IMG/VR virus record: IMGVR_UViG_3300045988_049479 | Coordinates: 117,652 to 181,651 of that record | Reading direction: 5' to 3' (one strand) | DNA from: a virus | DNA length: 64,000 nt | Shown: in pieces, positions 758 to 46,256 of the stretch | How positions within the stretch are numbered: the first letter of the stretch is position 1 | How the letters are laid out: every line of letters begins with the position of its first letter | The notes under the pieces: model-generated | The model's database searches: none | What the model was told of the DNA's origin: nothing | Seen by the model: the letters and a program-made list of their open reading frames with translations, nothing else | Translations under genes and position numbers: made by a program

Positions 758-2032
758 TTATAATAATAAGTACCGTTCCCAAGTTTTTGAATTACCTAAG
801 GACAAACGTTCATTTGTATTCTATTCGGTTCTAACATAAGGTGTTACTTTAAAATTTATAGGAAATTTGTATCTAAGCAAAGAATAATGTAATTTCTTAT
901 TCTTGCTTTTAAAATAATAGGGTTTGTTGTTATACATAAAGTGCACTCTGAAATGGCTATGATAATCAACCACCTCTATGATATGAATATACTTATTATA
1001 AAACTTAGATATATTGACTTCCTTTCCATTCCAATTTGAGAACTTCAAACCAGTCAAAGTTTCTATCTTTTTCAACAAATTCTTAGAATCACAGAATTTC
1101 ATCCAGCTGAAATAAGATCTCATTCTTCTTTCCAATTCTTCTTTATCAATCTTATTTTGCTTATATAGATTTATAAGCCTAAACATTCTCATTTTTATAG
1201 ATTTTCTTAATAGAACGTGAGTGTGATAAAATTTGTAACCTACAAAATCTACTCCTCTACTTTCTACTGGAAATATCTAGTAGTTAGGTTTTAATTCTAA
1301 ATTAAGAACTTGTTTCAAATACAGTTTTATAGATACTAATACATTTCTCAAATAATTCTTGTCATTACCAAGAATCACAATATCGTCAGCATATCGAAAG
1401 TAGTACTTACATTTTAACTCCTCTTTTATCCAGTGGTCAAAATATGTCAGATATAAATTTGCAAAGAACTATGATAGATAGTTTCCAATAGGAACTCCTT
1501 TGGCTGAATATATTATTTCCTTCAATAGACTTAACAGTTTCTTATCCTTTATTTTCTTCTACAACATCTCATACAGGATGTCATGTGTTATAGATGGATA
1601 AAATTTTCTTATATCCATTTTTAGGCAGTATTTAGTTTCATCTGAGTATTTCTACAATACCTTGAATAAATCATACTCTACCTTATGAATCCCTCTGTTT
1701 CTTATAGAGGAATATGTCTAATCTATAAAAATACTGGTCCAGATAGGTTCCATAATATTCATTATAGCATGATGAGTGATTCTATCAGGGTAATATGGAA
1801 GTCTAAAGATTAATCTTTCTTTAGGCTCATATATTATAAATGTACTATATTCAGAAGTCTAATAGATTAGCTATTTTAATTTGTCTGATAATTCCTTATT
1901 TTCTTCTAATCTATTCTTATCATGCTACTTAATACCACATCGAATTGATTTATTTCTTCTAGCCTTATCATCAGCTAATTCGATGTTTTTCAAATCATAC
2001 ACTCGTTCGTGCAAATATCCTACACGTTTCAA
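758..2032 (-). CDS. DGR-type reverse transcriptase, amber-recoded (about 10 in-frame TAG); start codon uncertain (TTG at 2032 or GTG at 2002)
   Basis: Manual minus-strand translation in a single frame from the TAA at 2036-2038 down to the TAA at 758-760. It contains an RLIFRLPYYPDRITHHA stretch, GVPIGNYLS[TAG]FFANLYLTYFD, FRYADDIVILG (YxDD) and a VDFVGYKF thumb motif. Tracker ORF 821..1192 is its C-terminal fragment; it stops at an in-frame TAG at 821-823 and the frame reads on. Confidence 0.8.
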
Positions 2033-2104
2033 TTTTTATATATTTCATCGGAAGCTTTCGAGATTTAACCTACTAACACCCTTCATTTAACACTACGTTG
2101 TCTT

Positions 2105-2119
2105 TTGCCTAGAGGCAAG
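2105..2119 (-). other. Small hairpin (ttgcc-tagag-ggcaa) between TR and RT
   Basis: Inverted repeat read directly from the sequence. Confidence 0.3.
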
Positions 2120-2173
2120 GATATTACTTAGCAAACTAAAAAAATAAAATAAATTGTTCTAAATATATAATAA

Positions 2174-2271
2174 CTCGACATTGGAATTGGCATTGCTGAC
2201 GTCATTGTTAGAATTGAAATAGCTGAGACCTGCATTGCTGCCATTATTCGCGTTGCTGCCTACTAGCAGTT
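2174..2271 (-). repeat. DGR template repeat (TR), non-coding, rich in AAT/AAC codons in the VR frame (ANNGSNAGLSYFNSNNDVSNANSNVE)
   Basis: Aligns base-for-base without indels to 2373-2470 (offset 199) and to plus-strand 28831-28923. Of 25 mismatches against VR1, 23 fall where TR has A on the minus strand. In the VR frame the TR contains stop codons, so it is not coding. Confidence 0.85.
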
Positions 2272-2345
2272 CTTTTTTGCCAATCAACGGTTTTTAGAAG
2301 TAATATCCTACGATTTATATCTAAATCGATTTTCTATATTTTATC

Positions 2346-3521
2346 TTAAGATACTCTATTTAGAGTCCTAAACCCGACATCGGAACCGGCAAGGCCGACG
2401 CCATAGTTAGAATAGAAACAGCCGAGACCCGCATCGCCGCCAAGCTTCGCGCAGCCGCCCACCCGCAGCGTGCGAAGCTCTGTAGAGGTAGCATTGCAAG
2501 AGTGGTAGTCACATATATAAGTTGTAGCTGAGGCTCCAGTACAAGAAGATGGTATAATCTCTGCTGTCTCTCCTAAGTCAAACTCTTTAATGTATCCATC
2601 TTGCGCTACCTCGTATCCTGCTATGGTCTTGCTGCCAATTACGTCAGTAAACTCTTCCTTGTTTGTGGTAGTATACACACTACTGATTTCATTTGCCGCA
2701 GTTCTTTGAATAACTACTCCATCTAGGTTTGTCCAAATATCTCCAAATGGATTATCAAAACCTCTCCATCTTGGAACTTTAAATGTCTTAGTCGCTACTG
2801 TATCTGTTTCGTTTGTTGCAGTACACTCTGGAATAACTAAATCTTTGATTCCAGTGAAGTTACCAATATCATTACAATAACCACATGGAGTAATAGGATA
2901 AGTTCCATTATATCCAGACCAACTTGTAGCAGAGTTACTCCAGTCTGTAACTCCAGGACCAAGTCCTCCTTGACGATAACCATCAGAAGTAAGTTCGGCA
3001 TTATAGGCAGCCTGGGAGTTAAAGTTAGCATATTCTATTACATAGTTCCAGTAGAATATCCATTTATAATATTCATAGCATAATAATTCAGAACCTGCAT
3101 TTGTAGCATAAGTTCTCATATTAGCTCTAGAAACATTAGTTCTAGGTTTTCCTAAATCGCTTCTAAAAGCATCTTTGGTATCAAGTTCAGTAGTTAGATA
3201 CTCATCGAATTGTGCTCTATTTCCACCACCTCTAAATGCTTCTGTAGTATTGACCACAGACACAGCTTTAGGGGTTGCTGACACAGTATTATCAACGGTA
3301 TTTCTATATGCGTCAATTAATAGTTCTGGTATTTCTACCCATGAATCATCAAGCTTTACTAGAGAAATTCTAACCCATCTTTTATTTCCATTAGAGCCTG
3401 ATTTACCATAAAATTTAGGAGTGTGGACTCTTACAGTTCCATCAGTTCCATCGAGCACAGAAGGAGTACTTCCATCTTCTTTGTAAGCCCAATCGTCCGG
3501 ATATAAATAGTAATTTACCAC
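2346..3521 (-). CDS. DGR target protein 1 (putative receptor-binding or tail-fibre protein with a C-terminal variable domain)
   Basis: Tracker ORF of 391 aa with a GTG start. It has no internal TAG although the flanking genes are TAG-rich. VR1 sits at its C-terminus. The frame stays open upstream through two TAGs to a TAA at 3729-3731, so the true start could be TTG at 3720-3722. Confidence 0.7.
   Translation of the reverse strand: MVNYYLYPDDWAYKEDGSTPSVLDGTDGTVRVHTPKFYGKSGSNGNKRWVRISLVKLDDSWVEIPELLIDAYRNTVDNTVSATPKAVSVVNTTEAFRGGGNRAQFDEYLTTELDTKDAFRSDLGKPRTNVSRANMRTYATNAGSELLCYEYYKWIFYWNYVIEYANFNSQAAYNAELTSDGYRQGGLGPGVTDWSNSATSWSGYNGTYPITPCGYCNDIGNFTGIKDLVIPECTATNETDTVATKTFKVPRWRGFDNPFGDIWTNLDGVVIQRTAANEISSVYTTTNKEEFTDVIGSKTIAGYEVAQDGYIKEFDLGETAEIIPSSCTGASATTYICDYHSCNATSTELRTLRVGGCAKLGGDAGLGCFYSNYGVGLAGSDVGFRTLNRVS
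2373..2470 (-). repeat. DGR variable repeat VR1 at the 3' end of the target gene; GC-rich; encodes ...RVGGCAKLGGDAGLGCFYSNYGVGLAGSDVGFR
   Basis: Differs from the TR almost only at TR adenines (A to G, T or C). The protein ends in a GFR motif typical of C-type-lectin-fold DGR targets. The TAA stop follows 27 nt downstream. Confidence 0.85.
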
Positions 3522-5192
3522 ACCGTTATTTGCTACACATCCTCTGTAAGCGGACTAAATAGGGAGGGATTTATGTAATAGTGGGTTTCCTATTCTAGTA
3601 AGGATAGGAGAAGATACGGTAATATCCCATTCTACTCCATAAGAGTATAAGTCTACGTTACTGCTTAACTCTGTGACTTGTTTGCTTAGACTCTATTGTT
3701 CTTTTTGTAATTCTTCCCAAGCAGTATTAAGAGCATTAAATTGTTCCTCTAACTTAGTACTAGTATCTGCCCACTATGCAGTCCCATCTTCAGAAAAGGT
3801 TAAAATCTATCCAAGTGCTCCTCCAGCAGGTATGTGTTTATTTCCAGAAGTAGTTGGGTGTACATAATTATTTGCATTATCTGCAATACCACTAAGTTTC
3901 TGTTTTTCAGTTTCTGTGTAATTAGCTTCAGAAAGTCCTTTTCCTAATTCTTTATCTACCTTACTTTCCAACTCCGTTTTAGTAGCTAAACCACTTATAT
4001 CCTAGTGTTCCTTTAAATAATTTTCATCATTCTATAACTAAGACACTTTAGTTGGAATGGCACTAGATTTTGCATATGTCTAATCTATAACATTTCCAGA
4101 GCCATCATAGGTAGCCTTTAAGTCATATACGGTTTCTCCAACCTTTATAGATTTGATAGCTGCCATATTATTGTATTATTAAAGTTTCTTCTTCTACATT
4201 ATGATCTATTCCTTCTATGGAGGCAGTTAAGTCTTCAACAGCTTTCTACAGTTCAGCCTTGGTAGCGTAGTTCTTTAATGTATCTGGGTCTATTCCAGAT
4301 CCTCCTATATTTCCTCCAACAACTTTTACTGGTTTTGCTGAGTTCTTAAACTACCCTTCAACCCAAATTGTTCCCATACTATTTAAAATATTAATTGTTC
4401 ATTTTCTCCATCTACCTGTACGTTACCAGAACCAGGCTATATTGCATCTATTTTCTTCTACAATTCGTCTACAGCAGCCTTTATTAATTCTTCCACCTCA
4501 GCTTTTGTATAGTAGCGTTCTGTCAGATATTCACTTCTGACATATCCTGTATCCTATATATCTTTTTCTCCATAAGTACAATAGTACGTATCGTTCTCTG
4601 TCTTATTATTTTCAACTAAGTCATCATAATCTGTTTGTGGAAGACATACCAATTTAGGAACCTCTTCTGTAAGAGCAACTTGCTTTCCAGATGCTAATAA
4701 TCTATTGTCTTCTGTAGTAAGTTTAACAGAACTTTCAATAGTCTGTTCAGTTGTTTCATCTTCTGAACTTTCTCCAGTTGTTCCCTATTGTACTTCTTTT
4801 TCGACAATTTTCTAAATAGTAATATCAGAAGTTTCTATAGAGGTTGATTTTAGAAGCTCTGTGCTAAATTCCTTAGAAGCGGCATCCTAATCTTCCTAAT
4901 ATTTCTTCTAGGTAACAAATATAAAATCGTCATCACCAGTTTCGGGAGAATCTCCTCTTAAACTTTCTTTTGTCACATACTCCTCTGCTATCTAATCGGA
5001 AAGGTCGGTTAATGACTATTGAGTGGCGTATGTAGATTGAGCATTTTCTTTTGTAAGAAACTTTTCATCTACCTACGAGCTAGTGTAGTATGCTTTAATA
5101 TCTTCTGTAGTAACGTAGCTTCCTAGTTTCTATAAACCAGAAACAATTTCATCAATCTATGTCTTTGAGTAATAATTAGTAGCAACCCAGGA

Positions 5193-6251
5193 CTAATACT
5201 GATGTGTAGTATGGTAATTTTGATCTAAGTACTCCTTAGTAATATAGACTTTAGCATCATTTGTTACATCATACACATAGTAATATGTGTCAGGTTCTAT
5301 AGCCTCATCTTCTACCAGTTTTAAATATTCCTCTTCAGTTAATGTAACCAGATTAGGAACATCTGACATCATGGCGAATTGGTCTTCTCCAACAAACAAT
5401 CCATCAGATTTAACATCTACTACTAGCTAATCCTTCCCTTCTACTACTGGAGACTTTATCTATCCTACAGTAATACTTTCTAGGGAACCATCTCCATCTA
5501 CCTTTAAAGTCTTATCTAGCTCATCTTGAATAGCCTATTGGTCTTCGTCATACTATTTCTTTGTAACAAAGACAAAATCATCTCCTTCCATTCCTTCTCC
5601 TCTAAGACTTTCTTTGGTAACAAATATGTCATCAGTTTCTTCCTTAGTATAATGGTTAGATAAGGCTTTAGATAACAAGGATTCTGGGTCCTCTAAATCT
5701 AGATCAGTTTTAGGGGCATAATTCTCAGTTAACTCTTCAAGAGTAGCATACTTGGAAAGGTTAGAGATTGTCTAGTCTAAATCCGTTCTAATCTGTACGA
5801 CAGTAGTATTTAGAGCTTTCTATTTCAACTATTCCTCTATCTTTTTACCCCATTCTGCTGATAAATAAAACTAATCATCATCTAGGCTGTCTTCATATAT
5901 ATAATAATATGTTTCTGCATGAAGATATGTTTTATTTTCGTCTATAGGTTTAAAATCTTCTGTGGTATTTTCAGACCATTCCTTATATTCAGCCTCTGTA
6001 CAGGTGATTATCTAAATAGATTCATAAGAAGCTTTCCAACCTTCTTTGTATTTAATCTTAGACTTATCTACTAGCATATAAATATTTCCGTTATCTATAT
6101 TTGAAACGGTCATGCCTTGATAAGCATATTTCTCCGGAATAGAATATAATTCGTCTAAATTATCGACTACTGTTCTATTATCAAGAGGTTTAGGAGTTTC
6201 TACGGTTAAAGCAACGCCTAATGTAGCATCACCTGTATATTTAAATGCCAT
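5193..6251 (-). CDS. Amber-recoded acidic structural protein; ATG at 6249-6251 overlaps the upstream stop as TAATG; 3' end not determined (frame continues below 5193 through TAG)
   Basis: Manual translation from 6251 down through tracker ORFs 6012..6251 and 5193..5399 stays in one frame, interrupted only by TAG (for example 6012, 5871, 5829, 5820, 5772, 5694, 5553, 5535, 5517, 5466, 5460, 5427, 5193). Confidence 0.5.
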
Positions 6252-7840
6252 TATTGTGATAAAGTAAAGTTAATTTGATGAGGCAATGCTGAAGAATAAG
6301 TATCCTTCTTAGTCCATACTTTATAAGGAAATCCATTTATCTATTCAGTAGAAGTTTCCCAGCCACTTAAATCAACATTTAGGTATCCTAGTCCTCCATC
6401 TACTGTAAATGAATTTAGCTAAGTATTACTTCCAGGTAATTTTATAATAGCCTTTCCACTTAATGAAAATGTAATAATTCCAGAAGATTGTCCAAATGGA
6501 ACAAGACTCTATTTGATTAAACTATCTGTATTACCAGAATACCAAGGGTAGGTAGCAGTCACCTATGCTGTAGTTGATATTGAACCAGCCTCCACCCTCT
6601 TGTCTGTAACCTCTCCCTTGTTGTTAATAAGATATTCTCCAGCAGCATAATTTACGGTACCAGAATGCACATAAACACCGATAGAATCATATGTTTCAGA
6701 TTCTACAGGAGAATCATTATAGGTAATAGTTTCTTCTCTACCAGTTTCCTCTCCAGCATCATTTTTTATAAATGTTAAAGTAGGGGTAAGTAAAGCGGAT
6801 CCTACCTCCACAATCTAAGAGGTGAAGCTATAATACAACTAAGGATAAACCAAATCTCTAACAACAGTAGGAAATAATAGAGTGTCTATAATCTCATTAA
6901 ACGGCTTTCCTTTCAATTTTTCAACTGTAGTTCCTTGAATAACAGTAGAAGTAGTATCATCTGGAAGTTCAGTTTGATAAGTAGCTATAGTTTCTAAACT
7001 TGTCTATATATTTGTGATATTCTCAGTATTAGAATCTACTTTAGAATCAGTGTTCTTCTAAGCTTCCTATACTCCCTTAACTTCTTCCTTTACCTCTGTT
7101 AGAGATGGTTCCAGGTCTTTTACATATATTCCAGGTAGAACTACTGTGGAAGGTTCTCCTTCCTCCTCTACTGGAGGAATTTCCTACTGAATCAGATGTA
7201 TTGCATTATCCTCCTACTAAGATAGAATTACTTCTAGAGTATTATCATCCTTTATTTCTATGGTTTTGGAGTTTCTTAGACTATTAGTTATCCAATTCTA
7301 GATGTTTTTGTCAACATCTATATTTTTGATAGACTCATTAATATCCTCTATTGCCTCATTAATCTAGGTTATTTTCTCAGAAAGATTGTTTATGCCAGTT
7401 CTGTTAGATTCAATTTCTTCTTCAAGTTCTTCCTTAAGTACAGTAATAGAAGTTCTGATATTACTTATATCAACTTTTATTTCCTCTATTTCTTCTGTAT
7501 TAGCTTCGTACTAACTTATAAAGAATAAAGCATAATCTAAGGCATCTTTTACAGTATTGATATTCTCTGCAACATCACTAGTATAAGTCCATTTCTATTC
7601 TATGTACTATACTAAATCTTTCTAGGCTTCTATAGTTCCTTCTATATTTCCCCAAAGAAGACTCTACTCATCAGCGATACCTAGATTCTTTCTAACCTTA
7701 GCTCTTTCTAATTCAGTTCTATATTCTCCAAGATAGTTGTTTCTTAGGAGAGGTATAGGTTCACTTTTTATTAAATGTCCTTTCTTTCCACAAGGCTTTA
7801 TATCAGCATTGCTTACCGAAGTATAAATAGGCTGTATCAT
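6251..7840 (-). CDS. Amber-recoded coiled-coil tail-fibre or needle-like structural protein (about 529 codons, about 20 in-frame TAG)
   Basis: Manual translation from ATG 7838-7840 to TAA 6251-6253 in one frame. The only internal stops are TAG. The frame is closed upstream by a TGA at 7847-7849. Heptad-like, E/K/I-rich sequence. Confidence 0.6.
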
Positions 7841-10800
7841 TATGATTCAATAATTGCTATTTAATAAATTCGTGATTATCTAATTTTACGGGTAGGTTAA
7901 TAAAACAAATTAGATTCAAAATATCCTAATAATCTGGTCTATATCCCTTTCTAACCCTTTTAAGGAAATCCTCATACCTTTTAATAGCCTTTCTTTTAAG
8001 AGCATCCACAACCTATACGTTTATGTTCATGGTGATTGTTACAGAATCCACCGCAAGTACGGAACATTGCTAACAATCTTTCAGCTTCCATGAATTGTTT
8101 AAAGCCTATTAAATAATCTATAATGTTAAGTGTCATCCAGATAAAATCTCTTGCAAATATATCTGCATCATGTTCTCTAGTTAGACACTTATTTAATAAA
8201 GAGTCAAAGAGTTTCTTACAGTAGTTAATATAACACTATTGCAGATTTCCTGTAAAGAATACATCTACCTTACATTTTTTGATAGTAGTTCCTTCTATAT
8301 TTCTCTCAAGGATTTCTTTTACAGTACATTCCTCTAGCTCTCCATCTACTTCTTTATATAGTTTCTCTCCATCAGTTATATAGATAGTTTCATAATACTC
8401 CTTGTATTCATCAGATGAATTTTCATACCATTTCATATTAGGAAGAATTATGTGGTCTACTACATAATATCCATCTTCTTTCACCTTAAATGTACAAGAG
8501 TCTAAATCCTCTGTATGGTCATTGAGAAGTACGTCTATCAAAGTAGCATCTCCTATACTAACTTTTATGATAGTATTTAGGGTAGCACTTTCACTATACT
8601 TATAAGAATCATAGGAAGTTACTACCTCTAAATCTTCATCAATATACTATCCATATTCCTTTGAAAAGTCTTCAATAGTTATTTCCCCGTTAATCTGGGT
8701 ATGTATATCAATACTAAATTCCATATTATAATAATTAAGACTCAGTAGTAGGCCATTGACCATATTGAGCAGGAGTAGAAAATGGTTTCCACTTACCTTC
8801 TTGTCGTATACGTCTAGACATAAAAACTGAACTAAATGATAAACTAATATCTTGAGGATAGTCTGTCCATGTATATGACTAACCTTCAGGAGTCGGTGGT
8901 AGACTATTTAATTTACCAGCTGGTTTCCCATTCCAATAATAATTATAGTCATATGCCTTAGTTGGAGTAACAGTCGTTGTTTCATGTCCTTCTGAATCTA
9001 CATATAGAGGATTTCCATCCTCATCTGTTTTCTGCTTATACTCAATAACTGGAGTTATTCCCTCAGTTCTAGTGTATATATTCTAGATAATAGTAGAAAC
9101 ATCGCTTGCCACAATCTCATAAATAGTAGTTCCCTGAGATTCGTCAGCTCCCTAGAAAGTAAATTTAGTTCTTTTCCAGATGTATGGATTCTCTTCAGTT
9201 GGAAGTTCAAAAGTATCAGTCCACTATTTAGTAGATAATTTTATCTCAGATTCTTCAGCAGTATCAGCAGGTAAGTAATGAATCTTAATAATAATATTAT
9301 TTACCGCTTCACTAGAACCAGAAAGATCTGACACCTATTTAAATAGTTTCTTTAAATCTTCTTCCACATTTGATTTGGAACCAGAAGCATTACTAATAAT
9401 TACTGAACCATCTGAAATAGGATAAATCTATTGCTAATCCTTATTATATACAATTGTTCCAGTTGCCATATTAATGTATTTGTCTTATTTTGTCATTATA
9501 TGGATTTCCATCATGAAGCTAAGCTAACTCTATTTCAGTTCTCTTTTCTTCTATATCCATTTGTCTATCTTTATATGTAGAATCAGATTGAGCTTTGAGC
9601 CAGTTAACTTTATATTCTAACTACATTTTCTGCTACTCTAATCCTAATCTCTATTCATCCAAACTTTCTATCTTCTACTAAGCTTTCTATAGTTCTTGCT
9701 GTAACTGCTGTGCCTATTGTGAAGTTTCTTCCAGTTTTTCCTATAGCTGCTATAGCTAATTGTTTTCTTCTTTACGAATCTATACTGCTTTCTTAACCTT
9801 ATATTTAAGGTCTGTAAGACTCTTAGCAGTTAGTGCTTCAAATATGATGTCAGGATCCATTTGCTGACTTTTAACAAACTCTGGAATAATGGCTTTAATA
9901 GTTTGTAAATCTTCCATTACTTCAGAGCTAGAAGTTATATGGATGTCATAATCAGTAACCGTAAAATATTCTGGAAGTGCTGTAAATATCTGCTAGTATT
10001 TATCTCCAAGTATAATAGTACCAGTCAATCCTTTCTTATATGTTATTTTAGCCTAGTTTAGACTATCCAATAATATCTCACAAGTGATTAGGTCCATCTA
10101 CTAGAAATAATGCTTGGTTACTATGTAAGAGTTAGTAACACCTTGCTTAATATTAGTTACAGCATCGTGAGTTTCTATTCCATTTAATCTTTCTCTAAAT
10201 ACTCCAGTTATAGATGATGTAGTTTGTTCTACTGATTGAATTGCTAATTCAATAGCCTATACAGCCTAAGCTTTTAAGGTATCATCAAATCCATTGTATA
10301 TCTAGTTAGGTGCTTGCGCTCCGTCATTTCTCTCTTCCTAAGTAGAATCAATCCACATGATACCACCCTTCTTGTATGCTAACCATTTCTACACTCTTTC
10401 TGGCCATTTTACGCCTAGGTTAGTAGGAAGCAATGACATATCCATGATTACTCCAGCAGTACCGCTGTTAGCTATCAGGTTATCCCTATAATAATTTAAC
10501 AAGTCATATCTATCCTGTAGATGTGCACACTTTAATATCAGAGAGTACGGTTGTTGAGAACGATTTAAGAAATATACCCCATTCACAGACAAAGAGCAGA
10601 AATTAGGATTATCTTTTGACCTCATAACAGTCTTGTCTAGACCTCTCAGAATATATATTTCTTCTCCAATTCTAATGGTATTGTATCTCTACATTACAAA
10701 ATCGTCATCAGTTTCTATCCACTCTACATCATAAACAGGAATTAACTAAAATCTATGAGCACTATATTCATTATCTGGATATCCAGGAATAGTTTCATGA

Positions 10801-11839
10801 TTCTAGTCTTCGTTTACTATAGTACAAGTGTCACCATAAACTCTTCTATAAACTGCAGCTGAATCATCGGCTCTCCATTCATCTTTTAGTCTTTTCAGAT
10901 CTTCTCTAGAGATTTCTTTTCCGTATTTAGCTAATATCTAGCTTTTACTCATCCATTTTCTAACTACTACTCTATACGAATTTCTAACATATGGAGATTC
11001 TGGATTCCTATCTACGAAAGTATTTAAAGGATTCAGAACTTCTATTTCTATGTTAGTTCCAGAAGATGATGATTTTACTCTGAAAAATGTATAGCCAGTA
11101 ATTAATAAATCTGTAAGTAACTATCGGAGTTTAGTTATTAAATCGGTTTCTCTAGACTGCATAATATAATGAATAATATTCTATGCAGCTATCTCATATT
11201 GAGAAATAAAAGACTAATCAATGTCTTGAATAATTTTATCTAACTAAGTCTTCACGGCTTTATCTGTAATATCTTTTCCGTCGATAAATTTCAGAATAGA
11301 ATTACTTAAATGGTCTCTAAGAAATTTAACTATTCCTTTAGTTATTTCTAACTATTTTTCTCTGGTGATATTACTAATGGTATCTGAATCCTTACAAGAA
11401 ATCTTCGGAAGGATAGGGGTTCCTAGATATTCCCCTACTAGAGCATCTACGTGCTTTTTTAGTAATGGTGTAAATTCTACAGAAGTAGGACTACCTATTC
11501 CAAAGTTTTCTTCCAGGTAACGAAACTATTCTGGGTCTCTCTTTCCGTTATAGTAATTATAGGCTTTCTATAATTCGTACTTATCATATACAAGCTCCGC
11601 AATAGCCTCGTTCGTCTTGTCTATCAGTTCTTTTTCTTTCATAACATAAATTATGCTGTTCTGGAGGAAGTTTAGTTGCATTATAGTATTTAACTCTTTG
11701 TAACTTCCTACTTCTTAATTCTTCCTTTATAAATGGGAGAAATTCTTCATCAGGTAAATCAGCTATAATGACTAAAGGCATCTCTGACCTATCAAAGTTA
11801 AACGATACCTTATAACCAACTGGATCTAGGTTCTGAATT

Positions 11840-14200
11840 TCAAGCCCACCTACGTATTCCATTTTGTACAAGTCTCTCATATAACCTAGGATCACTTGTT
11901 TCAATTCTGTATGGGTCATCGTATTCATTTTTTTGTATGTTAGTTTCAAAAGTCTTAGAAGTTGGTATAACCCCAAATCTTTTGATTCCTCTCTCGTCGT
12001 AATAATAACCATAATCTTGGAATTGTTCAACTTCTTTTTCAACAAGCACTGGCTATCTTCCTGACAATTCCTAGTCTGCCAATTCTGTCATTCCCACAGC
12101 TGCTACAATATCGAATTTACCTTTATTCTCATCATTATATCCAGTAAATTGGTCTAACATTTCTTCAAACCATATAGTATGACAGAAATCCTCAATAAAG
12201 GCTGCTGTCAAATCAGTATGTTGTTCTATAATAGTTTTGGTAGCGGGTGTTCCGTACTATTTAGTAGTTCCATTCTTGACGTCTGTTAGAGTAGCTCTAG
12301 GTCTTTTCATAAAGTAGTTTAAACAACCCTTTTCTCTAGCCCAGGTAATCATACCTACACGGGTAGCTTCTATGTTTATTCTACAATTATAGTATCTAGC
12401 TAAACACATAGCTATTTTATAGGCTTCTCTAATGTCATTAGGTCTGTCTTTATACATAGCAACATACTACGGTTCGTTTAGACCAAATGCTCTTCTTTTT
12501 ATAGTTATACAGAAATCAGAAGGATCTCTTGTTTCTTTTGAAGTTTGACTAGCTCCTATATCAATACCGTCTATTCCTGCAACATATAAATCATGCATTT
12601 CTTTGTACGCTGGAGATTCAAATTCTTCTCCCCTTTCCTCGGCTTCCTATCTAAGTTTATCCATCTACTCTTTATACAAATCAGACCATACAGGATGTTC
12701 AAGTATTTTTACTTTTCCGTTAATATTAGGAATCCATTTAAAACCATCTATATTATCCTAGGTGTGTTTATTATTTTTATAGAAATAGTCTATGTATCCA
12801 GATTCTGGTCTTGGTCCTATTTTCTTAAGTCTTATATTAGCTAACTGGTCCGCAATAAGAATCTTGTTGAACTTGTTAACACCTTCAAGATTAAATGCTT
12901 CTTCTGCATTCCAACATCGTTCAGCACACTTCTTTAGATAGTCATCTGGAACTGCTAATAAATTGTCGCGCTCTTCCTATAGATACTTCTTATATTCTAC
13001 TGTATTACATACACCTCTATGGTCCATGTATTCTGAATTTAGAGACTAGACAAAATATGGAATGAAGAACCCACTTTCAATAGTAGTCCCATCCTGGGTA
13101 TAATTATGTCTAAATGGAAGAACTTTGTAAGCTTTTGGATTATAATATATCTTCTTAAGACCTGCTAATGGAGCGCCCATATCACCACCAGTACCTCCAA
13201 ATAACATTGTTCCACGAGGTTTACCTTGAACTTCACAAAGCTCTTGTCCCTACACTACAGCAGTATCTAGTCCAGGCCAAGATCCTGCTTCATCATATAT
13301 TAATAAGTCAACACGGTCTCCACGAATATTAGATGCCTTAGCTCCGTTTATTCCAACTACTTCCGATTTAAATCCAACATCCTCAAACTGTCCGTTTACC
13401 TTAATCTGTTTACCGGACTTCTTTCTTAAGTCTTGGTCAATCAAACGTAGTTTGAAGAATCCTCCTCCTGTACAAGTATTCAAGAATGTTAAAGCATTAT
13501 CAAACTTACTAAAAGTACCTTTAAGGAAGGTATCATTAAAACAGGTAATCATTACTCTGCTTCTTCTGATTACTGAATACATTCTTGCAGATAAGGATGC
13601 ATTTATTTCAGAGAATCCAATAGAACGAGCTTTCATAAGAGCTGCGTGTTTATGCAGAACTCTAGCCATCTATAGATAATGAAAGAACATATAATGAGAT
13701 GCGAAAAATATAGGAAAGTCACTACTTGTTCCTTCTCCAGATGCCTTGTTATCATCAATAATAGGAAGCTAGTAGAAGTTTAGGAAGAAATAGTTATCTC
13801 CAGTAATTGTATAACCATTAACAGTCATTCCATATTTACATCTTCTATACTATTCCTTCCAAAACTCATTATATCTCTTACTATCTTTTAGATATGGACA
13901 ATACTTTCCAGTTTTTCTATATACTTCTCTGGTCTCAGTAAACCAATCTGGGTCGAAATCAAGACCATGTGTTTCATCTATTGGTCTATATCCAGTTATT
14001 TCATAAGATAAAGTAGGGTCAAATACCTCTATCTTATCTCCTCTTTTTACATCCCAATAATCAGCATTTTTGCCTCTTTCCTCTCTTATCTTCTATACTA
14101 GTTCTCTAGCTTCTTTGGCATCCTCTTTTTGTTCTTTCTCTCTTACCTAATCTACTATATTCTAGATTTCTTCAGGTAATATTTTTTTCTTTCTAGGCAT
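11840..14200 (-). CDS. terL: Terminase large subunit-like protein, amber-recoded (about 16 in-frame TAG)
   Basis: Tracker ORFs 13250..13669, 12257..12457 and 11840..12049 are all in the same frame (start mod 3 = 1). I checked 12050-13250 triplet by triplet and found only TAG, no TAA or TGA. An ATG at 14198-14200 begins MPRKKK... A Walker-B-like VDLLIYDEAGSWPG and a C-terminal nuclease-like segment are present. The gene ends on TGA at 11840. Confidence 0.5.
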
Positions 14201-15582
14201 AATTAAAAGTCTCCTGGGTCAAAGCCGTCTGTAGCTCCACCTCTTACAGTAGATTGTTCTGTAAGCTCTTTCTTAACCTGCTCTTCTAGTGTTACTAATT
14301 CTTCATGAACTTTATGAAGAGTAGCCATTTCTTTCATTACCTTTTCAGCTTGAAAGACGGGTTTGCCATTATTATCACGTTCATTTAAATCTACTATAGT
14401 ATCAAAATAATCAATAAACTAGTCAGCTGCTCTTTTAGCTGCTTCTAGAAGTTTTATTGATTTGTTAGAATCCTACAATGCTCGGTATTTTCTACAGGCT
14501 TCCCTGAATAACGGGTCATTAAATTCGGATTCAGATAGTCCAGAGTCACTAATAGCTTCATCATGTCTTTCATGTTCTGAATATTGGCTATAGGGACTCT
14601 TCCAATCAATAGCTAGATAAATGTAAGATAATTCTCTAGTTACTCGTTCCTTGTCAACAGATTTATCTCTCTGTATCAAAGCCTTAAACTCTTTAACTAG
14701 AAGAAGCTCTGGTTCATTTATTTCTAACTATTTAGTTAAAGTGTTATAATTAAATACATTCATACTCATCAATCATTAACATTAACATCTTTAATCTTTT
14801 TATTTCATTTTAGAACCGCATTTACTTACTTTCATTTTAGAACCACAAGCATCTTTCTTAGCATACTTTGTTCTATCTGGAACCCATTTTCCATTTTTAA
14901 AGTTTCCCTTGTGTCCTCTATTTGCCATGACCTCCTAGTCATTATATTTATTAATAGATACAGAATCTCTGGATGCTTCATCCTTTGCAGATTTCATATC
15001 CTTTTTATACTAAGCTCTTCCAGCCTTGAACTTGTCAACTTCATTAGCTTTCTTAGTAACCTTAGTTCCTTTCTATGCTTTTTGGCAAGCTTTGCAGATT
15101 CTTCCTCCCTGTTTAAAATAAACAAGTTCCTCTCCTTCTGGGCATACTCCTTTTAATTTTTTATAGTATTCTAGTTTAGCTCCAAGTCTAGCCATAACTC
15201 CGCCTTGCATCTTCTACATAAATTCTTGATACTTGGCTTTGATTCCATCTTCTCCAAGCTACTCAGCGTAAGCCTATAAATCTTGCTCTGATTGTAGTTG
15301 TATCCCTTGTGCTTGGGCATCTTGTATCAAGTATGCCATGAATGCTTTCTGTAATTCTTCCTAATTAGCCATTACTCTTCTACTTTAATTAAATCCTTTG
15401 TATTAAATACTGCTTCCTGCATTAATCCAGAATCAGTAAACCATCTACATCTTAGTCCTCGTAATCCTTGGTTATCTTTAAATAAAGCTGCTTCTCTTCT
15501 TAGAACAAGCATAACTGGAGAGTGCATTACTTTACACTACCGTAAAGTAACACAATCCCCAGGCTTAAAATAAACTTTTTCA

Positions 15583-16185
15583 TCAATTGTTTCCATGCTT
15601 CAATTCGTCTCTTCTTTCAGTTAGTTTCTCATTAACTACAGCCATGATTCTATTCTCATTAACTACTACAAATCCTAGTTTATAGAATGGAACCATACAT
15701 TCACTAGCTATTGTATAAAATACAATATCTCCAGGCTTCAAGAACTCACACTTATGTCCTACTTCTATCACAGTTCCTACCTTAATAAATTGTTGCTCTT
15801 CTTCAATTTCTCCAGTCTCATTAGATTTATAAGTAGGAGTAAATCCACCTAAATCAGTAATAAGACCGCTTTTAGTAGTTTTTATTTTTTGGAATGGGTT
15901 TTGTTCAAAGGGTTTAATTAATGCATACCCATACATCGGCATAATTTCAACTCCATTCATATCGTTAGATAATGATTTAGCGTAATCCTCTAGTGCCTGA
16001 TTATGTTTAGAGAATTTATCTTCTAACTCATCTACTGCGGTATTAAACTTCTCTTGTTTTTCTCTTAATAATGTTTGGTCTGCAGCCTCTCCATTTAAAA
16101 TAAAATGTTCTCCCGTACCTTCCATTCCAGTTAATGATAGTGCTAGTTTTTCGTTACTGTTTAATTCTGTTCTTAAAGTTTCCAT
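15583..16185 (-). CDS. Protein with C-terminal GroES/cpn10-like domain (standard code, no TAG)
   Basis: Tracker ORF of 200 aa. The C-terminal half reads ...ALIKPFE...KTTKSGLI...VGTVIEVG...KPGDIVFY...AVV, which resembles the cpn10 fold pattern. Confidence 0.4.
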   Translation of the reverse strand: METLRTELNSNEKLALSLTGMEGTGEHFILNGEAADQTLLREKQEKFNTAVDELEDKFSKHNQALEDYAKSLSNDMNGVEIMPMYGYALIKPFEQNPFQKIKTTKSGLITDLGGFTPTYKSNETGEIEEEQQFIKVGTVIEVGHKCEFLKPGDIVFYTIASECMVPFYKLGFVVVNENRIMAVVNEKLTERRDELKHGNN

Positions 16186-17643: not shown

Positions 17644-17757
17644 TAGTCATAATTCATTTAATCATTTATCACATTTATCTATATTTATTTGATACTTTTC
17701 AAGTATATTAATATTCTTTGTAAGATACAAATCAATAAATAATACATTATATTAAAA

Positions 17758-18099: not shown

Positions 18100-18173
18100 A
18101 AAACATTATTAAGTGCATTAAAGAGATTGTATTAAGAATATATCTATATTTACTATTTATATTTAAAAAGTAA

Positions 18174-18308
18174 CATGGACTATAACAAAGCAACTTTACA
18201 CGCGGCAACAGGTCGTACTCTCTTACTTCCTGGATGGAGAGGATATTTTTATTGGGATTATTCTAAAAAGGAATTGAATTTCAGAAACGGAGATTATCAT
18301 TTAGATAA
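18174..18308 (+). CDS. Tiny ORF (44 aa) ending TAA TAA
   Basis: Manual translation; no other support. Confidence 0.2.
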
Positions 18309-18605
18309 TAAATAGCTTAGAGAAAAGGGAGTCATGGAGAGAACTGATTGGTACTATATTATATAACAAAATAGGCGAGCCTAGAGATTAGGTTCGCCTA
18401 TTTTTATTTAACATTATACTTTGTATCATAAGTACAAGTGATTCTATTTATACCATCCTCCCACCAAGGTTTATCTGATGGCTATCTAATACCACTTGGG
18501 ATGGTTATTGTAGGAGTAGAAGTTTCTACTATAGCATCTACTATTTTAAATAATGTATCCAAGTCAAATTCTGGAAATTCATTATGTAAGTTTGTCAATG
18601 TCTTT

Positions 18606-18842
18606 TTAAAGTCTATCATATCCCTCAAATGTATTATCAATTATTGCTTTTTCTAGTGTAGTGTCTTTATATAGTCCATTTTTAATTAGATTTCTAACTG
18701 AATTGTCAACTACATTCCATATATCAATCAGTAATGATTTATTCTCCGGAACACTTCTAAGTGTACTTTCTAAATATCCGGCTTTTATCATATTTATTAG
18801 TTGACCGTTAATAAAGACTTCAAATTTAAATTCTTTATCCAT
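18606..18842 (-). CDS. Hypothetical protein
   Basis: Tracker ORF of 78 aa. Confidence 0.35.
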   Translation of the reverse strand: MDKEFKFEVFINGQLINMIKAGYLESTLRSVPENKSLLIDIWNVVDNSVRNLIKNGLYKDTTLEKAIIDNTFEGYDRL

Positions 18843-19010
18843 ATATTTTAGTATATTACACTTAGTCTATTTAATTCATCTAGGTAATCTAGAAACCATT
18901 GTTCATTTTGTTTTCCTTCTTCTGCAACAATCTCAATTAAAGATTCTGCTGCTAGGAGTATAGTTTCAGATAACTCTTTTAAATTTGGCTTAGTTAGTTC
19001 ATTGTATTTA

Positions 19011-19325
19011 TCAGTCAAGTTTAACATAATCCATCCAGTCTTTTATATATGATTTACATTCCTCTAAATCTGGATAGATACTTGCTATAGTGCAACCTGT
19101 TTTTGGATTCCTAAAATGATGGAGTTTTGCTTCCTCATTTTTCTCCTCTTCTATATTTCTATTTAATGTTCTATTCCAGTAGTTGTATTTCTCATCTAGC
19201 ATTTCCTTATCACACTCCTCCAATATTTTCATATTGGGATTACTCATTATTTTGTCATACTTTCTTTTTAAATTAGAAACTTTGACAACATCATTACCAT
19301 TCAATACGACTGCACACTGTTTCAT
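19011..19325 (-). CDS. Hypothetical protein
   Basis: Tracker ORF of 104 aa. Confidence 0.4.
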   Translation of the reverse strand: MKQCAVVLNGNDVVKVSNLKRKYDKIMSNPNMKILEECDKEMLDEKYNYWNRTLNRNIEEEKNEEAKLHHFRNPKTGCTIASIYPDLEECKSYIKDWMDYVKLD

Positions 19326-19549
19326 TTCACTACTTTATAAGTACATATCTTACCTATCTGCTTTCCTTGAATACTTATTTGTGGAAGAAAGTAGCAGGCT
19401 TGATTCTCAAATTCTTGAGGTACAAATATGTAATCAAATCTACATCCAACTACCTTATCGCAAACTTTATTCCAATCATCTCCCTCTTCAATAATAAGGG
19501 TCTTAGCTCCTGTTGGAGTTACAGCATAATTCTCATTTAAATTTATCAT
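19322..19549 (-). CDS. Hypothetical small protein (start trimmed to the MINLNENY... methionine)
   Basis: The N-terminal 25 residues of tracker ORF 19322..19624 are a read-through of the tRNA gene. The first internal Met is taken as the start. Confidence 0.35.
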   Translation of the reverse strand: MINLNENYAVTPTGAKTLIIEEGDDWNKVCDKVVGCRFDYIFVPQEFENQACYFLPQISIQGKQIGKICTYKVVK

Positions 19550-19566
19550 AACTATTAATTTTGGCG

Positions 19567-19638
19567 TTGCCCTACTAGGATTCGAACCCAGACTAAATGA
19601 TTTAGAGTCATCTGTGCTGACCATTACACCATAGGGCA
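19567..19638 (-). tRNA. Amber suppressor tRNA-Gln(CUA)
   Basis: Minus-strand sequence tgcccta-tg-gtgtaatggtcagcac-a-gatga-CTCTAAA-tcatt-tagt-ctgggttcgaatcctag-tagggca-a. The 7 bp acceptor is perfect, the D and T arms are canonical, and the anticodon stem carries one G.U pair. Loop CTCTAAA gives anticodon CTA. The D-arm, variable loop and T-arm nearly match tRNA-Gln(TTG) at 34204-34275. Confidence 0.85.
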
Positions 19639-19775
19639 GTATTTATTTCTCTTTTAGAGATTTATTCTCCGCTGCCAATTTCTCTAGTTCTTTCCTTAGC
19701 TGTTCGTTTTCGTGAAATAAAGCCTACATGGTTGCATTTACATTAGCAAGGAGTATTCTTATTTGAGCTATTTGT

Positions 19776-20177
19776 TCATACATATGCTTTCAGTTGTTCT
19801 ATTTTCATAGTTACCACATTAGATAATGCCATTCTGAATTTAGTAATTCCAGCTCTTACTGATTCCAATTTTCCACTTTCCAAACATTCTTGAATTTTAT
19901 TCAGTTCGGATTCCCCTAGATATTCGCAGACATCTATAAATAAATCATCATCTAAAGATTCTAAGTATTTCTGGAATTTGCCTACTTCTTCATTAGCTAG
20001 ACAGCTTTCCTCTTTCTATCTCTCATAAGATATTAATAAGAATAAAGAATCATCTGTAGATTCCGCTTTAATGGTTAGACCATTACTTGATAGATAATAC
20101 TCCTAGTTCTTATTAATTGCATCAACGAGATTCTTAAACTCGTCCTAATTTAGTAATGTTTCTAAGTCTGTAATCAT
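19776..20177 (-). CDS. First gene of the leftward unit, small protein (133 codons) with 3 in-frame TAG
   Basis: Manual translation from ATG 20175-20177 to TGA 19776-19778. TAGs fall at 20145, 20103 and about 20010. Confidence 0.4.
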
Positions 20178-20279
20178 AATTGTTTCTTTTTTAGTTATAT
20201 ACAACAATACCTTCTGAAAAGTTAAATACAAAGTTAAAAAATTCTAATTCTAATATTATACATATTTCATTTAGTTATC

Positions 20280-20420
20280 CGCAAATGGGTACAGGTACTT
20301 TATATAAATAGCCCCCTGGGGGTTTAATAAATTCGGAATTTATATACAGGTGAAAATTACCTAGATTCCGAAAATTATATGAGAGACTGTTATGGCGGTC
20401 CACAACCCCTTTAGTCCCCC
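20280..20420. promoter_or_regulatory. Divergent intergenic control region between the leftward and rightward modules
   Basis: No ORFs. Contains the palindrome ccccctggggg and the 8-bp inverted repeat ttcggaat...attccgaa with a 25 nt spacer, plus runs of cccccc. It lies between the minus-strand start at 20177 and the plus-strand start at 20495. Confidence 0.4.
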
Positions 20421-20494
20421 CCTGTATATTGATATAAAACTAAAACAAAAACAAAAATCAATTTCCAGTATTAACATTTTAAAATTTTAAGATT

Positions 20495-20941
20495 ATGACA
20501 CTCGAAGAATTGAAAGACCAGAACGTAAGCGCAGTAGAAAGAGCTAAGGCAGTAGTATCAGCATTGGGACTGAAAGGTGACGAACGCTCAGTTGTTGTCG
20601 GCTTGTCAAAGGGCGATAAGTTTAAGTTGGTAGCAATGAACAAGGTAGATTTACCTGCAAATGCCAACCAACCAAACCAAAGCAACTTTACACCGATTAC
20701 ATTTAGCACTGACACAGGTGCAATCATTGGTGCAAAACACTTTGCGGGCGTAGAAATCGACGACGATGCTCCGGCAATCGGTTCAACTCCGTTGGAAAAT
20801 GCCGCTTTCCTTGTTTATTGCATTGACCACAATGTAACATTTAAGGTAGACAAAAAGGTAACGGAAGACATCGAAGCTACCACCGGCCGCCAAGCCTACA
20901 AGAAAAATACTTACAAGCTGGTAGTGGAAGACTATGATTAA
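20495..20941 (+). CDS. Hypothetical protein, first rightward gene; locally GC-richer
   Basis: Tracker ORF of 148 aa with an ATG start. Confidence 0.5.
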   Translation: MTLEELKDQNVSAVERAKAVVSALGLKGDERSVVVGLSKGDKFKLVAMNKVDLPANANQPNQSNFTPITFSTDTGAIIGAKHFAGVEIDDDAPAIGSTPLENAAFLVYCIDHNVTFKVDKKVTEDIEATTGRQAYKKNTYKLVVEDYD

Positions 20942-21957
20942 AAGATTGGGGAGAAATCCCCTTTCTTTTACATACAAATAATCTTTGTAGAAATGGACAT
21001 AAGAAAAAAGTTTAAGACTATAAAGTGTTTGTATAATTGGGGCATAATCTATGACCCAAAGACTAATGAAAAGTTAAATTTCAAATCCAAACGTGTTTAT
21101 TGCGTAACTTCTTGGGCTTGGATTATGACCTATCAAAAGTCAGAAGAAGATATTCCTGAGATAATTAGGATAGTCTTTGTAGATTAACTCTAAGGTACTA
21201 TGAGTTTTAAATAAAGTGCCCACATGAACCCCATCATCGGAACGTTGGTTAACGGGGAAAACAACATCACAACAAATCAAATCAAAGTTTTTGTTTAGTT
21301 TTAGGATTGTATCTGGCAGCTTGGAAAGACAAGCAAAATCTTTATACCTATCTGCTAATAGGTTTAGTGTTCAACGCGAAAATTCGGTAAAGGAAGGAGA
21401 GAAATTGTCCACTAAAAAGACCCTCAATTTCCGGACTTTTTCCGATTTTCAAAAAATCCGCCAGAGTAGGAGTTATATAGCTCACACTCTCTATGGACAT
21501 TATTTAGTATTTAGCCTATAAAAAGGCAACAAAAAGCGAGGCTACGCAGAAGAGCCTAACACCAAAAATAACTGCTACAAATTCTATGTGCATATTCGCA
21601 AACTTGAGCACTATAGGATTTAGGTTGAGCTGTAAGGATTGGTCACTTATAGCAATATTATGAGTACTGCTGATATGTCAGTGACCGTACATATCACATA
21701 TAAAATATGTTATACAATTATGTTAGAAGTTGCCAGGTCTAAGAAGCCTGATTAAAATCTCTAGATAGTAAGAGAGAACCTCATAAGGGTTCATTTTCCA
21801 TCTCGAACCTATTCGCAAGTTTATAGACTAGCTATCTATAAATTTAGTGATGGAATACCAACGAAGTTGGTGTTCCCGCTTTGCGAACGTTGATAACGTC
21901 CTCAGCATGGAAAACTGAGAAATAATCTCCTATCTTATTCTAGATATAGATAGGATT

Positions 21958-22026
21958 TCCCTACTAGTATAATGGATTGCGTCTCCTTTAAAGGAGAAGA
22001 TTCTGGTTCAAGTCCAGAGTAGGGAA
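21958..22026 (+). tRNA. tRNA-like gene (69 nt) with non-canonical anticodon arm (tctcc-TTTAAA-ggaga, 6-nt loop; anticodon would be UUA or UAA)
   Basis: Acceptor tccctac/gtaggga pairs perfectly. T-arm is tctgg-ttcaagt-ccaga. It lies inside a 1 kb ORF-free region. Confidence 0.35.
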
Positions 22027-22628
22027 CTACTAAGTTGCAGTATTCATATTATTGTCGGACCATAATGGGTATGCCCTGAGACTATGCAGTCGTTGTGAAA
22101 CAACTCAAAGTATTGTGGCACAGGAAGGTCTGGTCGTTACTCTTTGCTTATTTTATTAATTTCCATTTTGACTAAAAGGCACAGCGGTGCCTTTACTCTC
22201 AAGATAAGAACAACCTTTACGTGGTTTGAGAGATAAGTAAGCTGCTTTAGCTGAAACTAATAGTTCTAGTAACAATTAAAAATATTTACCATGAAAGAGA
22301 AAATGAAACGTATTGAGGAGTACACTAAAGCAATGAGAGAGCTACTAGATAGACTCTTGGAGCAAAACCCAGATTCAGAGAATGAAATCTATGATGAAAT
22401 ATGGGGAGCTTATGTTGCAGGCATGAAGGTGTTCTTATAACTCCTATTCTAGCTGAGAATTAAAACTAGCTGGCTTTTATCACTCTTTGTAAAAGCTCAA
22501 AAATTAAAAAGAGAAATCTAGAACGGTAAGCCCGGCTCTCTTCATCCTTTAACTGATTTAGAAGTAAAACAGAAATTAGTTGGCAGCCTGGAATAGACAG
22601 GTATTTTTAACTAAAAATTATAGAAAAA

Positions 22629-40696: not shown

Positions 40697-40782
40697 CGAC
40701 GAAACAAGGCTCCACAGCAGTTACAAGTTGTAACTGGTCTTATCTCCGAATAGCTAGTCTTACGGGGTGGAGAAGTAGTCAC

Positions 40783-46253: not shown

Positions 46254-46256
46254 GAT

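Follow-up and report, generated by a model that had tools for sequence, protein, structure and literature searches.

A candidate amber-suppressor tRNA-Gln(CUA) and the reading of TAG as glutamine in the late genes of a crAss-like phage

The IMG/VR virus record IMGVR_UViG_3300045988_049479 carries a transfer RNA (tRNA) gene with anticodon CUA on the minus strand of the 64,000-nucleotide (nt) stretch that we analyzed (positions 117,652 to 181,651 of the record; hereafter the window, with positions counted from its first letter). ARAGORN places the gene at 19566-19638 and reads the anticodon as cta; it is the sole minus-strand tRNA among the 28 that the program finds in the window, and ARAGORN and Rfam together give 29. 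The Rfam model RF00005 matches 19567-19638 over model positions 1-71 of 71 and scores 66.3 bits, where its gathering score is 29; the tRNA-Gln(ttg) gene at 34204-34275 has an equal score. We consider the minus-strand gene very probably a functional amber-suppressor tRNA-Gln(CUA) of a crAss-like phage, descended from an older, glutamine-derived CUA lineage. A reading made earlier from the letters and their open reading frames (ORFs), hereafter the sequence-only reading, had proposed a suppressor of this type and, for its origin and expression, two further ideas that we revise below.

The RNA is a standard class-I cloverleaf. It has an acceptor stem UGCCCUA/UAGGGCA, a D arm GUGU-AAUGGUCA-GCAC whose loop contains G18G19, a 5-bp anticodon stem (GAUGA/UCAUU), a 4-nt variable loop (UAGU), a T arm CUGGG-UUCGAAU-CCUAG and an A as discriminator (19567). 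The anticodon loop reads C32-U33-C34-U35-A36-A37-A38, with U33 and a purine at 37, as expected of an amber suppressor; CUCUAAA is said to be a favorable loop for amber suppression (work of Yarus and of Kleina/Miller). Minimum free energy folding of the single sequence gave a rod-like structure and not the cloverleaf, as is common for tRNAs. Covariance and covariation tests were used instead. In an alignment of 12 Gln-family sequences, 98% of the cells were paired in the cloverleaf, and both sides had changed in 16 of 21 pairs; the D stem is invariant in this alignment because the search pattern fixed it. None of 500 shuffles reached this level of covariation, and slid registers also fell far below it. 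Thus, the minus-strand cloverleaf with a CTCTAAA loop, which the sequence-only reading had described, is recovered by ARAGORN (which assigned no other anticodon), by an RF00005 score well above threshold and by covariation.

Coverage of the window by ORFs of at least 100 amino acids (aa) rises from 0.57 under genetic code 11 to 0.83 when TAG is treated as a sense codon, and in-frame TAGs are numerous in the leftward ORFs from 1 to 15596. We determined the residue by a test that avoids circularity: with TAG masked as X in both query and subject, leftward proteins were aligned to ORFs of related loci, and the codons at the aligned positions were then read. Among the non-TAG codons aligned to a window TAG, CAA and CAG accounted for 36 of 40 in high-scoring segment pairs with at least 97% identity, 318 of 336 at 90-97% identity and 681 of 939 at 70-90% identity. 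Among these replacements, CAA, from which TAG is separated by two mutations, was at least as frequent as CAG. Reading in the reverse direction, from TAGs of the relatives to codons of the window, gave the same picture. Of 129 TAG sites in conserved leftward genes, 26 were invariant and 103 varied among relatives; glutamine was the commonest alternative at 83 of the variable sites, with glutamate next (6 sites). The proposal that TAG encodes glutamine in the leftward late genes is therefore upheld, both by these sites and by CAA/CAG fractions of 73-95% at identities of at least 70%.

TAG is the majority glutamine codon of the late block, which has 124 TAG, 73 CAA and 30 CAG codons (124/227, 55%), while 22 long rightward genes contain no TAG among 181 glutamine codons. 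TAG is a glutamine codon of the leftward late genes, and the long rightward genes do without it. The nucleotide after in-frame TAGs (+4) showed no significant bias relative to CAA/CAG (p = 0.21) or to all codons (p = 0.16). In four rightward ORFs (22629-23102, 43731-44321, 45579-46271 and 46710-47162, all on the plus strand), a TAG lies 3-9 codons before the next TAA or TGA, which suggests that TAG still terminates early genes; probably it remains a stop there, with the nearby TAA or TGA serving as a back-up once the suppressor is present. In practice, the leftward third of the window has to be translated with TAG as glutamine, as otherwise the terminase, portal and tail genes fragment.

The body of the tRNA also points to glutamine. 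We scanned one genome per species from 185,579 species with the pattern GGTGTAATGGTYAGCAC-N6-YTYTRA, which combines the shared D arm with a Y-U-Y-U-R-A loop, and found that all matches with sense anticodons were tRNA-Gln (UUG or CUG). The pattern also matches CUA and UUA suppressors in regions of low GC. In most of these regions, treating TAG as sense increases ORF coverage, and several evidently belong to phage contigs that had been binned into metagenome-assembled genomes (MAGs), among them a 186-kb "Bacteroides sp." contig that represents this phage. Several small MAG contigs that match the pattern carry what we take to be human-type tRNA-Gln, which would mean eukaryotic contamination. Glutamine identity is supported in two independent ways, by the D-arm signature and by the replacements at TAG sites, and with the CUA anticodon they bear out the proposed amber suppressor of Gln type.

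We compared the tRNA with the identity elements for E. coli glutaminyl-tRNA synthetase (GlnRS; PMC9976931). U1-A72 (U at 19638, A at 19568), G2-C71, G10-C25, U35 and A37 are present, and three E. coli determinants are not: pair 3-70 is C-G (G3-C70 expected), position 36 is A (G36 expected) and the discriminator is A73 (G73 expected). The identity elements that the sequence-only reading had listed are thus found at U35, 1-72 and 2-71, and lacking at G36 and 3-70. C3-G70 and A73 are likewise found in bacterial tRNA-Gln(UUG) with the same D arm from a Prevotellaceae MAG and two rumen MAGs, and A73 occurs in the tRNA-Gln(UUG) of the window as well. Since bacterial tRNA-Gln(UUG) share them, C3-G70 and A73 may be the host-type state. 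The A36 is unavoidable because the anticodon is CUA, and A36 is tolerated in the E. coli suppressor supE. In every Gln-type CUA tRNA that we collected, position 32 is C, 37 is A and 38 is either A or C; the UUG tRNAs instead show loops of the UUUUGAU type, mostly with U32. This difference fits the "extended anticodon" idea, in which the anticodon arm covaries with the anticodon (PMC11231383).

The source phage is a large (~185-190 kb) crAss-like gut phage, consistent with the "Zeta" group, an assignment made from features and not from a tree. The features are a crAss-type large terminase subunit (TerL) and portal, a genome size within the 145-192 kb of that group (related contigs are 183-193 kb) and many tRNAs (29 in the window). 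In tblastn, the terminase has 42-45% identity to two uncultured human-gut phages and 26-29% to many crAss-like phages; a megablast search of 17000-23000 against phage sequences in GenBank gave no match. We recovered the exact 53-nt core of the suppressor tRNA in 28 IMG/VR contigs, mostly of 178-193 kb, and collected further relatives through the portal gene, with portal identities from 96% down to 55%. Across 27 distinct flank contexts, the tRNA is identical at 73 of 73 positions in 23, at 72 in three and at 71 in one. The 400-nt flanks meanwhile drop to ~84% identity upstream and ~90% downstream while the tRNA stays at 73/73, a contrast that indicates strong purifying selection on the suppressor tRNA. 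Of 31 close relatives, 28 have the gene at 7.7-9.4 kb upstream of the start of portal, and two of the other three contigs carry it beyond the flank that was retrieved. Relatives with 55-81% portal identity had no such tRNA in their upstream flanks (up to 10 kb, shorter for several contigs), apart from a variant with a long variable arm in contig L052. Some contigs of the source phage or its close relatives are deposited as parts of bacterial MAGs: L095/L098 (DXLM01000001.1, 186 kb, "Bacteroides sp."), L101 (a "Clostridium sp." MAG, 153 kb) and L104 (an "Acholeplasmataceae" MAG).

Table 1. Coordinates of the suppressor tRNA, its surroundings and the other features discussed (window positions)
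Feature	Position	Strand	Details	Basis
Amber-suppressor tRNA, Gln type (predicted)	19567..19638	-	72 nt including discriminator A73; CCA unencoded	ARAGORN and Rfam RF00005
Anticodon loop CUCUAAA	19601..19607	-	7 nt; anticodon CUA at 19605-19603	Read from sequence
Small TAG-free ORF	19322..19549	-	Start 17 nt past the tRNA; conserved in 30 related loci	
Small recoded ORF	19643..19783	-	46 aa; 1 in-frame TAG; stop ends 4 nt before the tRNA	
First ORF leftward of the divergent region	19776..20177	-	133 aa; 3 in-frame TAGs	
Divergent intergenic region	20178..20494	.	Putative replication origin/control region	ORF map; cumulative GC-skew minimum
Two genes interrupting the leftward run	17758-18099, 18175-18366	+	Opposite strand	Protein-level conservation
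TAG-recoded late block	758..15596	-	Terminase small-subunit-region ORF, TerL, portal, tail/fiber-like proteins, reverse-transcriptase ORF	
TerL	11840-14200	-	16 in-frame TAGs	phrog_6681, E = 1e-61
Portal	9471-11681	-	32 in-frame TAGs	phrog_6547
Reverse-transcriptase ORF	758-1762	-	6 in-frame TAGs; adjoins tail-fiber-like genes	Pfam RVT_1, E = 1e-16
RAGATH-14 RNA	21725-21931	+	Ends 26 nt before the second suppressor-type tRNA	RF03145, 156.6 bits
Second suppressor-type tRNA	21958..22027	+	6-nt loop UUUAAA	ARAGORN "anticodon ta"; Rfam 49.6 bits
Paralogous tRNA-Gln(UUG)	34204..34275	+	In rightward tRNA-rich region	ARAGORN, Rfam

The suppressor gene was expected close to a divergent region on the strand of the late genes, and it does lie there, ~0.6 kb to the left of that region. 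Cumulative GC skew is lowest at ~20 kb, and the skew itself has opposite signs in the 18-20 kb and 20-22 kb intervals. This switch at the divergent region suggests a bidirectional replication origin that is flanked by two suppressor loci, the CUA tRNA on the left and a second suppressor-type tRNA on the right. Two ORFs separate the CUA tRNA from the divergent region. In relatives, the TAGs of the first (19776-20177) align to TAG (67) and CAA (17), and the TAG of the second (19643-19783) aligns to CAG (17), TAG (8) and CAA (3). Because their TAGs align to TAG, CAG and CAA, both ORFs are genuinely recoded, and the claim that the tRNA precedes all TAG-rich genes is not supported as worded. Immediately past the tRNA, an ORF had been called at 19322-19624 on the minus strand with its start inside the tRNA, so that the N-terminus of the ORF had swallowed the tRNA, as the sequence-only reading had noticed. 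An alternative start is available at an in-frame ATG (19549) that lies 17 nt past the tRNA, and the longer call is an artifact.

Farther leftward, five small ORFs with 0-1 TAG each extend down to 18404. Two genes on the opposite strand follow (17758-18366), which are conserved as proteins to distant relatives, with the antisense frame less conserved. Then come four TAG-free leftward genes: a PD-(D/E)XK nuclease, a pair of small Cys-rich ORFs and an ORF that resembles GroES. The TAG-rich block begins at 15596 and runs downward; ~4 kb of TAG-free genes separate the tRNA from it. At the far end of that block, the reverse-transcriptase ORF may mark a diversity-generating retroelement or a retron-like element inside recoded sequence.

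On the rightward side of the divergent region, an RNA of the RAGATH-14 family directly precedes the second suppressor-type tRNA. Orthologs of this locus in ~30 related IMG/VR contigs have 7-nt loops and nonsense anticodons only, UUA in 12 and CUA in ~18. The 6-nt loop in the window has one C fewer than its UUA relatives, and the copy in contig L224 is degraded; a 6-nt anticodon loop means that the copy in the window is probably impaired. The UUA suppressor occurs although TAA is the main stop codon of the genome. The order RAGATH-14 and then tRNA was kept in all eight relatives checked (L001, L002, L003, L005, L008, L010, L015 and L016). The literature that we searched does not mention RAGATH-14. 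Just downstream of the second tRNA, some relatives carry RAGATH-1 hammerhead and Pistol ribozymes (11261-11330 and 12240-12308 in L003; 5596-5669 in L016), and none reached threshold in the window.

Other relatives have Gln-type CUA tRNAs of 88-90 nt, with a 16-nt insertion in the variable region (L052 at 103-192, L133, L140, L163, L164 and L237-L246, on contigs of 80-195 kb). The insertion comprises a 3-bp stem, in which GCC/GGC covaries with UCC/GGA, and a 7-nt loop YUCUGMA (CUCUGAA or UUCUGCA) that resembles the anticodon loop of tRNA-Gln(CUG). The suppressor tRNA of the window lacks it. The insertion could be a decoy arm for GlnRS or a relic of recombination; we found no description of it, and no literature search was aimed at it.

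We aligned the suppressor with the tRNA-Gln(UUG) at 34204-34275, and the two are related: 57 of 73 positions are identical, the best value when the suppressor is compared with each of the other 28 tRNAs in the window (next best, 51). In the acceptor stem, pairs 3-70 and 4-69 are flipped and nothing else differs, so that the GGG/CCC swap described from the sequence exists at two pairs but does not extend over the whole run. Elsewhere, the differences are C20/U in the D loop, position 26, one base of the variable loop, two bases of the T arm and, in the anticodon arm, three stem pairs and four loop positions. Scanning IMG/VR with the same pattern recovered ~20 distinct Gln-type CUA tRNAs on many viral contigs; one group, on another set of 170-188 kb contigs, differs by compensatory changes in three stems. 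The nearest non-self CUA tRNAs differ from the suppressor at 10-13 of 65 non-loop positions (5-8 of 55 outside the anticodon arm), and the UUG tRNA of its own window differs at 14 of 65 (9 of 55). In the acceptor stem, C3-G70/C4-G69 is the majority state, found in 9 of 12 family members including the Prevotellaceae tRNA-Gln, and the UUG copy is the outlier. Because other CUA tRNAs are nearer and the acceptor has the majority Gln state, the suppressor lineage appears to predate the phage species. In IMG/VR we also looked for a possible source of a recent one-step change from CUG to CUA, namely a tRNA-Gln(CUG) that has the anticodon stem of the suppressor (GATGACTCTGAATCATT); none of the eight matches is a tRNA, so nothing speaks for such an origin.

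Several observations weigh against our reading of the CUA tRNA as the glutamine decoder of the late genes or against its place at their head. It departs from three E. coli GlnRS determinants, as described above. With two recoded ORFs upstream, it is not strictly first. Around the tRNA, neither promoters (sigma-70-like, or of the Bacteroidetes type TTTG...TANNTTTG) nor terminators exceeded the counts expected from shuffled sequence. The clade may have a decoder besides the CUA-Gln tRNA, as a second suppressor-type tRNA is found in relatives. We nevertheless see very little chance that the tRNA inserts another residue, be it pyrrolysine, Glu, Lys, Tyr, Trp, Ser or Leu. ARAGORN prints "tRNA-Pyl", and Glu ranks second among the alternatives at TAG sites (it occurs at 17 and is commonest at 6), but glutamine dominates the replacements, including the two-step CAA, and, among sense tRNAs, the D-arm signature is confined to tRNA-Gln. 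Moreover, mass spectrometry found glutamine at TAG in a 191-kb crAss-like phage (PMC9523058), and Pfam searches of ten larger rightward ORFs, the four longest included, found no aminoacyl-tRNA synthetase and no release factor. G18G19, the UUCGAAU T loop, the 5-bp anticodon stem and the 4-nt variable loop are unlike tRNA-Pyl. The latter has a small D loop without G18G19, a 3-nt variable loop, a 6-bp anticodon stem and no canonical T-loop sequence. On this anatomy and on the codon evidence, tRNA-Pyl was rejected; "Pyl" is the default name that ARAGORN gives to CUA. Equally hard to credit is that the gene is a non-functional or auxiliary relic, with TAG decoded mainly by the locus at 21958-22027 or by a host factor. 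The second tRNA of the relatives has a CUA or UUA anticodon, and many recoded phages lack a detectable suppressor tRNA, which would suit such a relic; yet the Gln-type CUA tRNA has a full Rfam score and is perfectly conserved between flanks that are 10-16% divergent, and it is intact where the second locus has a 6-nt loop (in the window) or is degraded (in L224).

The sequence-only reading had derived the CUA tRNA from a recent duplication, within this genome, of the tRNA-Gln(UUG) at 34204-34275, followed by a swap in the acceptor and a rebuilding of the anticodon arm. The two are paralogs, and several points fit: the UUG tRNA is the closest in the window, the D stems are identical, the variable loops and T arms are nearly so, A73 is common to both, and, once its own species cluster is set aside, the UUG copy has its nearest relatives in this CUA lineage (7-9 differences over 55 positions). 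In another crAss-like phage, a single-step conversion of tRNA-Gln(TTG) to TTA has been documented (PMC7886860). However, the suppressor is closer to CUA tRNAs of other phages than to its UUG neighbor by both counts given above, the nearer ones including the 170-188 kb group with compensatory stem changes, and it is the suppressor that has the acceptor pairs of most family members. We therefore hold a recent duplication to be improbable, on a comparison of 72 nt that is too short to fix the order of events firmly. The tRNA would instead belong to an old, Gln-derived CUA lineage shared among TAG-recoded gut phages, as far as 72 nt can resolve it, and the direction of the acceptor swap is probably opposite to that proposed. 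The second idea, that one long late transcript runs leftward with the tRNA at its head, so that the tRNA is co-transcribed with the TAG-rich structural genes, also seems unlikely to us, if a little less so. The tRNA is on the strand of the late genes, adjoins the divergent region, has tight spacing to its flanking ORFs (4 nt upstream, 17 nt downstream) and keeps its position in 28 relatives. Against a single transcript stand the opposite-strand, protein-conserved genes between the tRNA cluster and the structural block, the ~4 kb of TAG-free genes and the more distant relatives (55-81% portal identity) whose upstream flanks lack such a tRNA, L052 excepted; the promoter and terminator scans point neither way. 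Co-transcription of the tRNA and the structural genes as a single unit thus looks unlikely. The tRNA is close to the head of the leftward side, and more likely it forms part of a short unit, transcribed leftward, beside the putative origin.

A more speculative arrangement, to which we give only a slim chance, is that the Gln-type CUA tRNA forms half of a conserved, origin-adjacent code-switch module straddling the GC-skew switch. The leftward half may be the CUA tRNA between recoded ORFs, and the rightward half the second suppressor, fused behind RAGATH-14, whose anticodon may toggle between CUA and UUA among close relatives while decaying in the window. Replication-driven gene dosage and RNA processing, and not a dedicated late promoter, may then time the change of code. 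In relatives, the extra variable arm with its CUG-mimicking loop may reinforce recognition of the CUA tRNA by GlnRS.

Other RNA features of the window lie in the rightward region. A match to the transfer-messenger RNA (tmRNA) model RF00023 at 44585-45161 (+; 63.1 bits, 577 nt against a 374-position model) may be a phage tmRNA with insertions; ARAGORN makes no call there. At 40615-40697 (+), an 83-nt tRNA with anticodon ata is labeled "Tyr", possibly through an intron or a miscall, and a tRNA at 42627-42699 (+) is found by Rfam alone (39.5 bits) and missed by ARAGORN.

We propose the following sequence of events. The suppressor tRNA would be transcribed from a short leftward gene cluster beside the divergent, origin-like region. 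It would be cut out by RNase P and 3′ processing enzymes of the host, receive its CCA from the host enzyme and be charged by host GlnRS, which may tolerate the CUA anticodon because U35 and the acceptor and D-arm elements are kept. The charged tRNA would then compete with host release factor 1 at UAG. Through this competition, the terminase, portal, tail and other late proteins would be completed only after the tRNA accumulates. As a tRNA needs no translation, its release would be possible even from a transcript in which the ORFs themselves depend on this tRNA.

Recoding of this kind has precedents. Yutin et al. (2021) described suppressor tRNAs and reassignment of TAG and TGA in late genes of crAss-like phages, notably those of groups beta and zeta (PMC7886860). 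A preprint by Borges et al. generalized the late-gene pattern and proposed a role in timing (10.1101/2021.08.26.457843), and Peters et al. (2022) used mass spectrometry to show that, in a crAss-like phage of 191 kb for which suppressor tRNAs are annotated, TAG encodes Q (PMC9523058). With the crAss-like phages that use genetic code 15, the phage of the window shares a phage-encoded CUA tRNA, TAG as glutamine mainly in late structural genes, early genes that fit the standard code, a large (145-192 kb), tRNA-rich genome and presumed charging by host GlnRS. We see no essential difference from them. What the analysis adds is detail: a Gln-type tRNA lineage that extends across phages, a fixed place by the GC-skew switch, two recoded ORFs upstream of the tRNA and a second locus beside RAGATH-14.

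The tRNA can also be set beside E. coli supE (glnV), which is tRNA-Gln2 with anticodon CUA, a one-base mutant of the cellular tRNA-Gln(CUG) and a weak suppressor that GlnRS charges although it lacks G36. Like supE, the phage tRNA joins a tRNA-Gln body to CUA and keeps U35, U1-A72, G2-C71 and G10; unlike supE, it has a distinct anticodon stem, C32/A38, C3-G70 and A73, and it would be the main glutamine decoder of late genes, in which TAG makes up 55% of glutamine codons. In Jade phages, a "code change module" of suppressor tRNA, tryptophanyl-tRNA synthetase and release factor 1 lies upstream of their lysis cassette and reassigns TGA to Trp (10.1101/2021.08.26.457843). The two arrangements share a suppressor tRNA ahead of recoded late genes and a proposed role in timing late expression. 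They differ in that the ten larger rightward ORFs tested in the window include no synthetase or release factor and that the ORFs directly upstream of the tRNA are themselves recoded. An alpha-group crAss-like phage offers a parallel for derivation from a phage-borne tRNA-Gln: a point mutation, a single anticodon change, converted tRNA-Gln(TTG) to tRNA-Sup(TTA) with no recoding yet (PMC7886860). Here, in contrast, 16 of 73 positions differ from the resident tRNA-Gln, and the genome is heavily recoded.

The suppressor tRNA and the reading of TAG as glutamine had thus been correctly identified, and they are an already known feature of crAss-like phages. The window brings no new principle. It agrees with the published model that a phage tRNA supplies a code switch behind which phage late genes are locked, and it is a clean, well-conserved example in which TAG has become the majority glutamine codon of late genes. 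Its modest additions are a widespread phage lineage of Gln-type CUA tRNAs and a variable second suppressor locus in the clade. That second locus, together with the extra variable arm in the CUA tRNAs of relatives, offers the most interesting leads.

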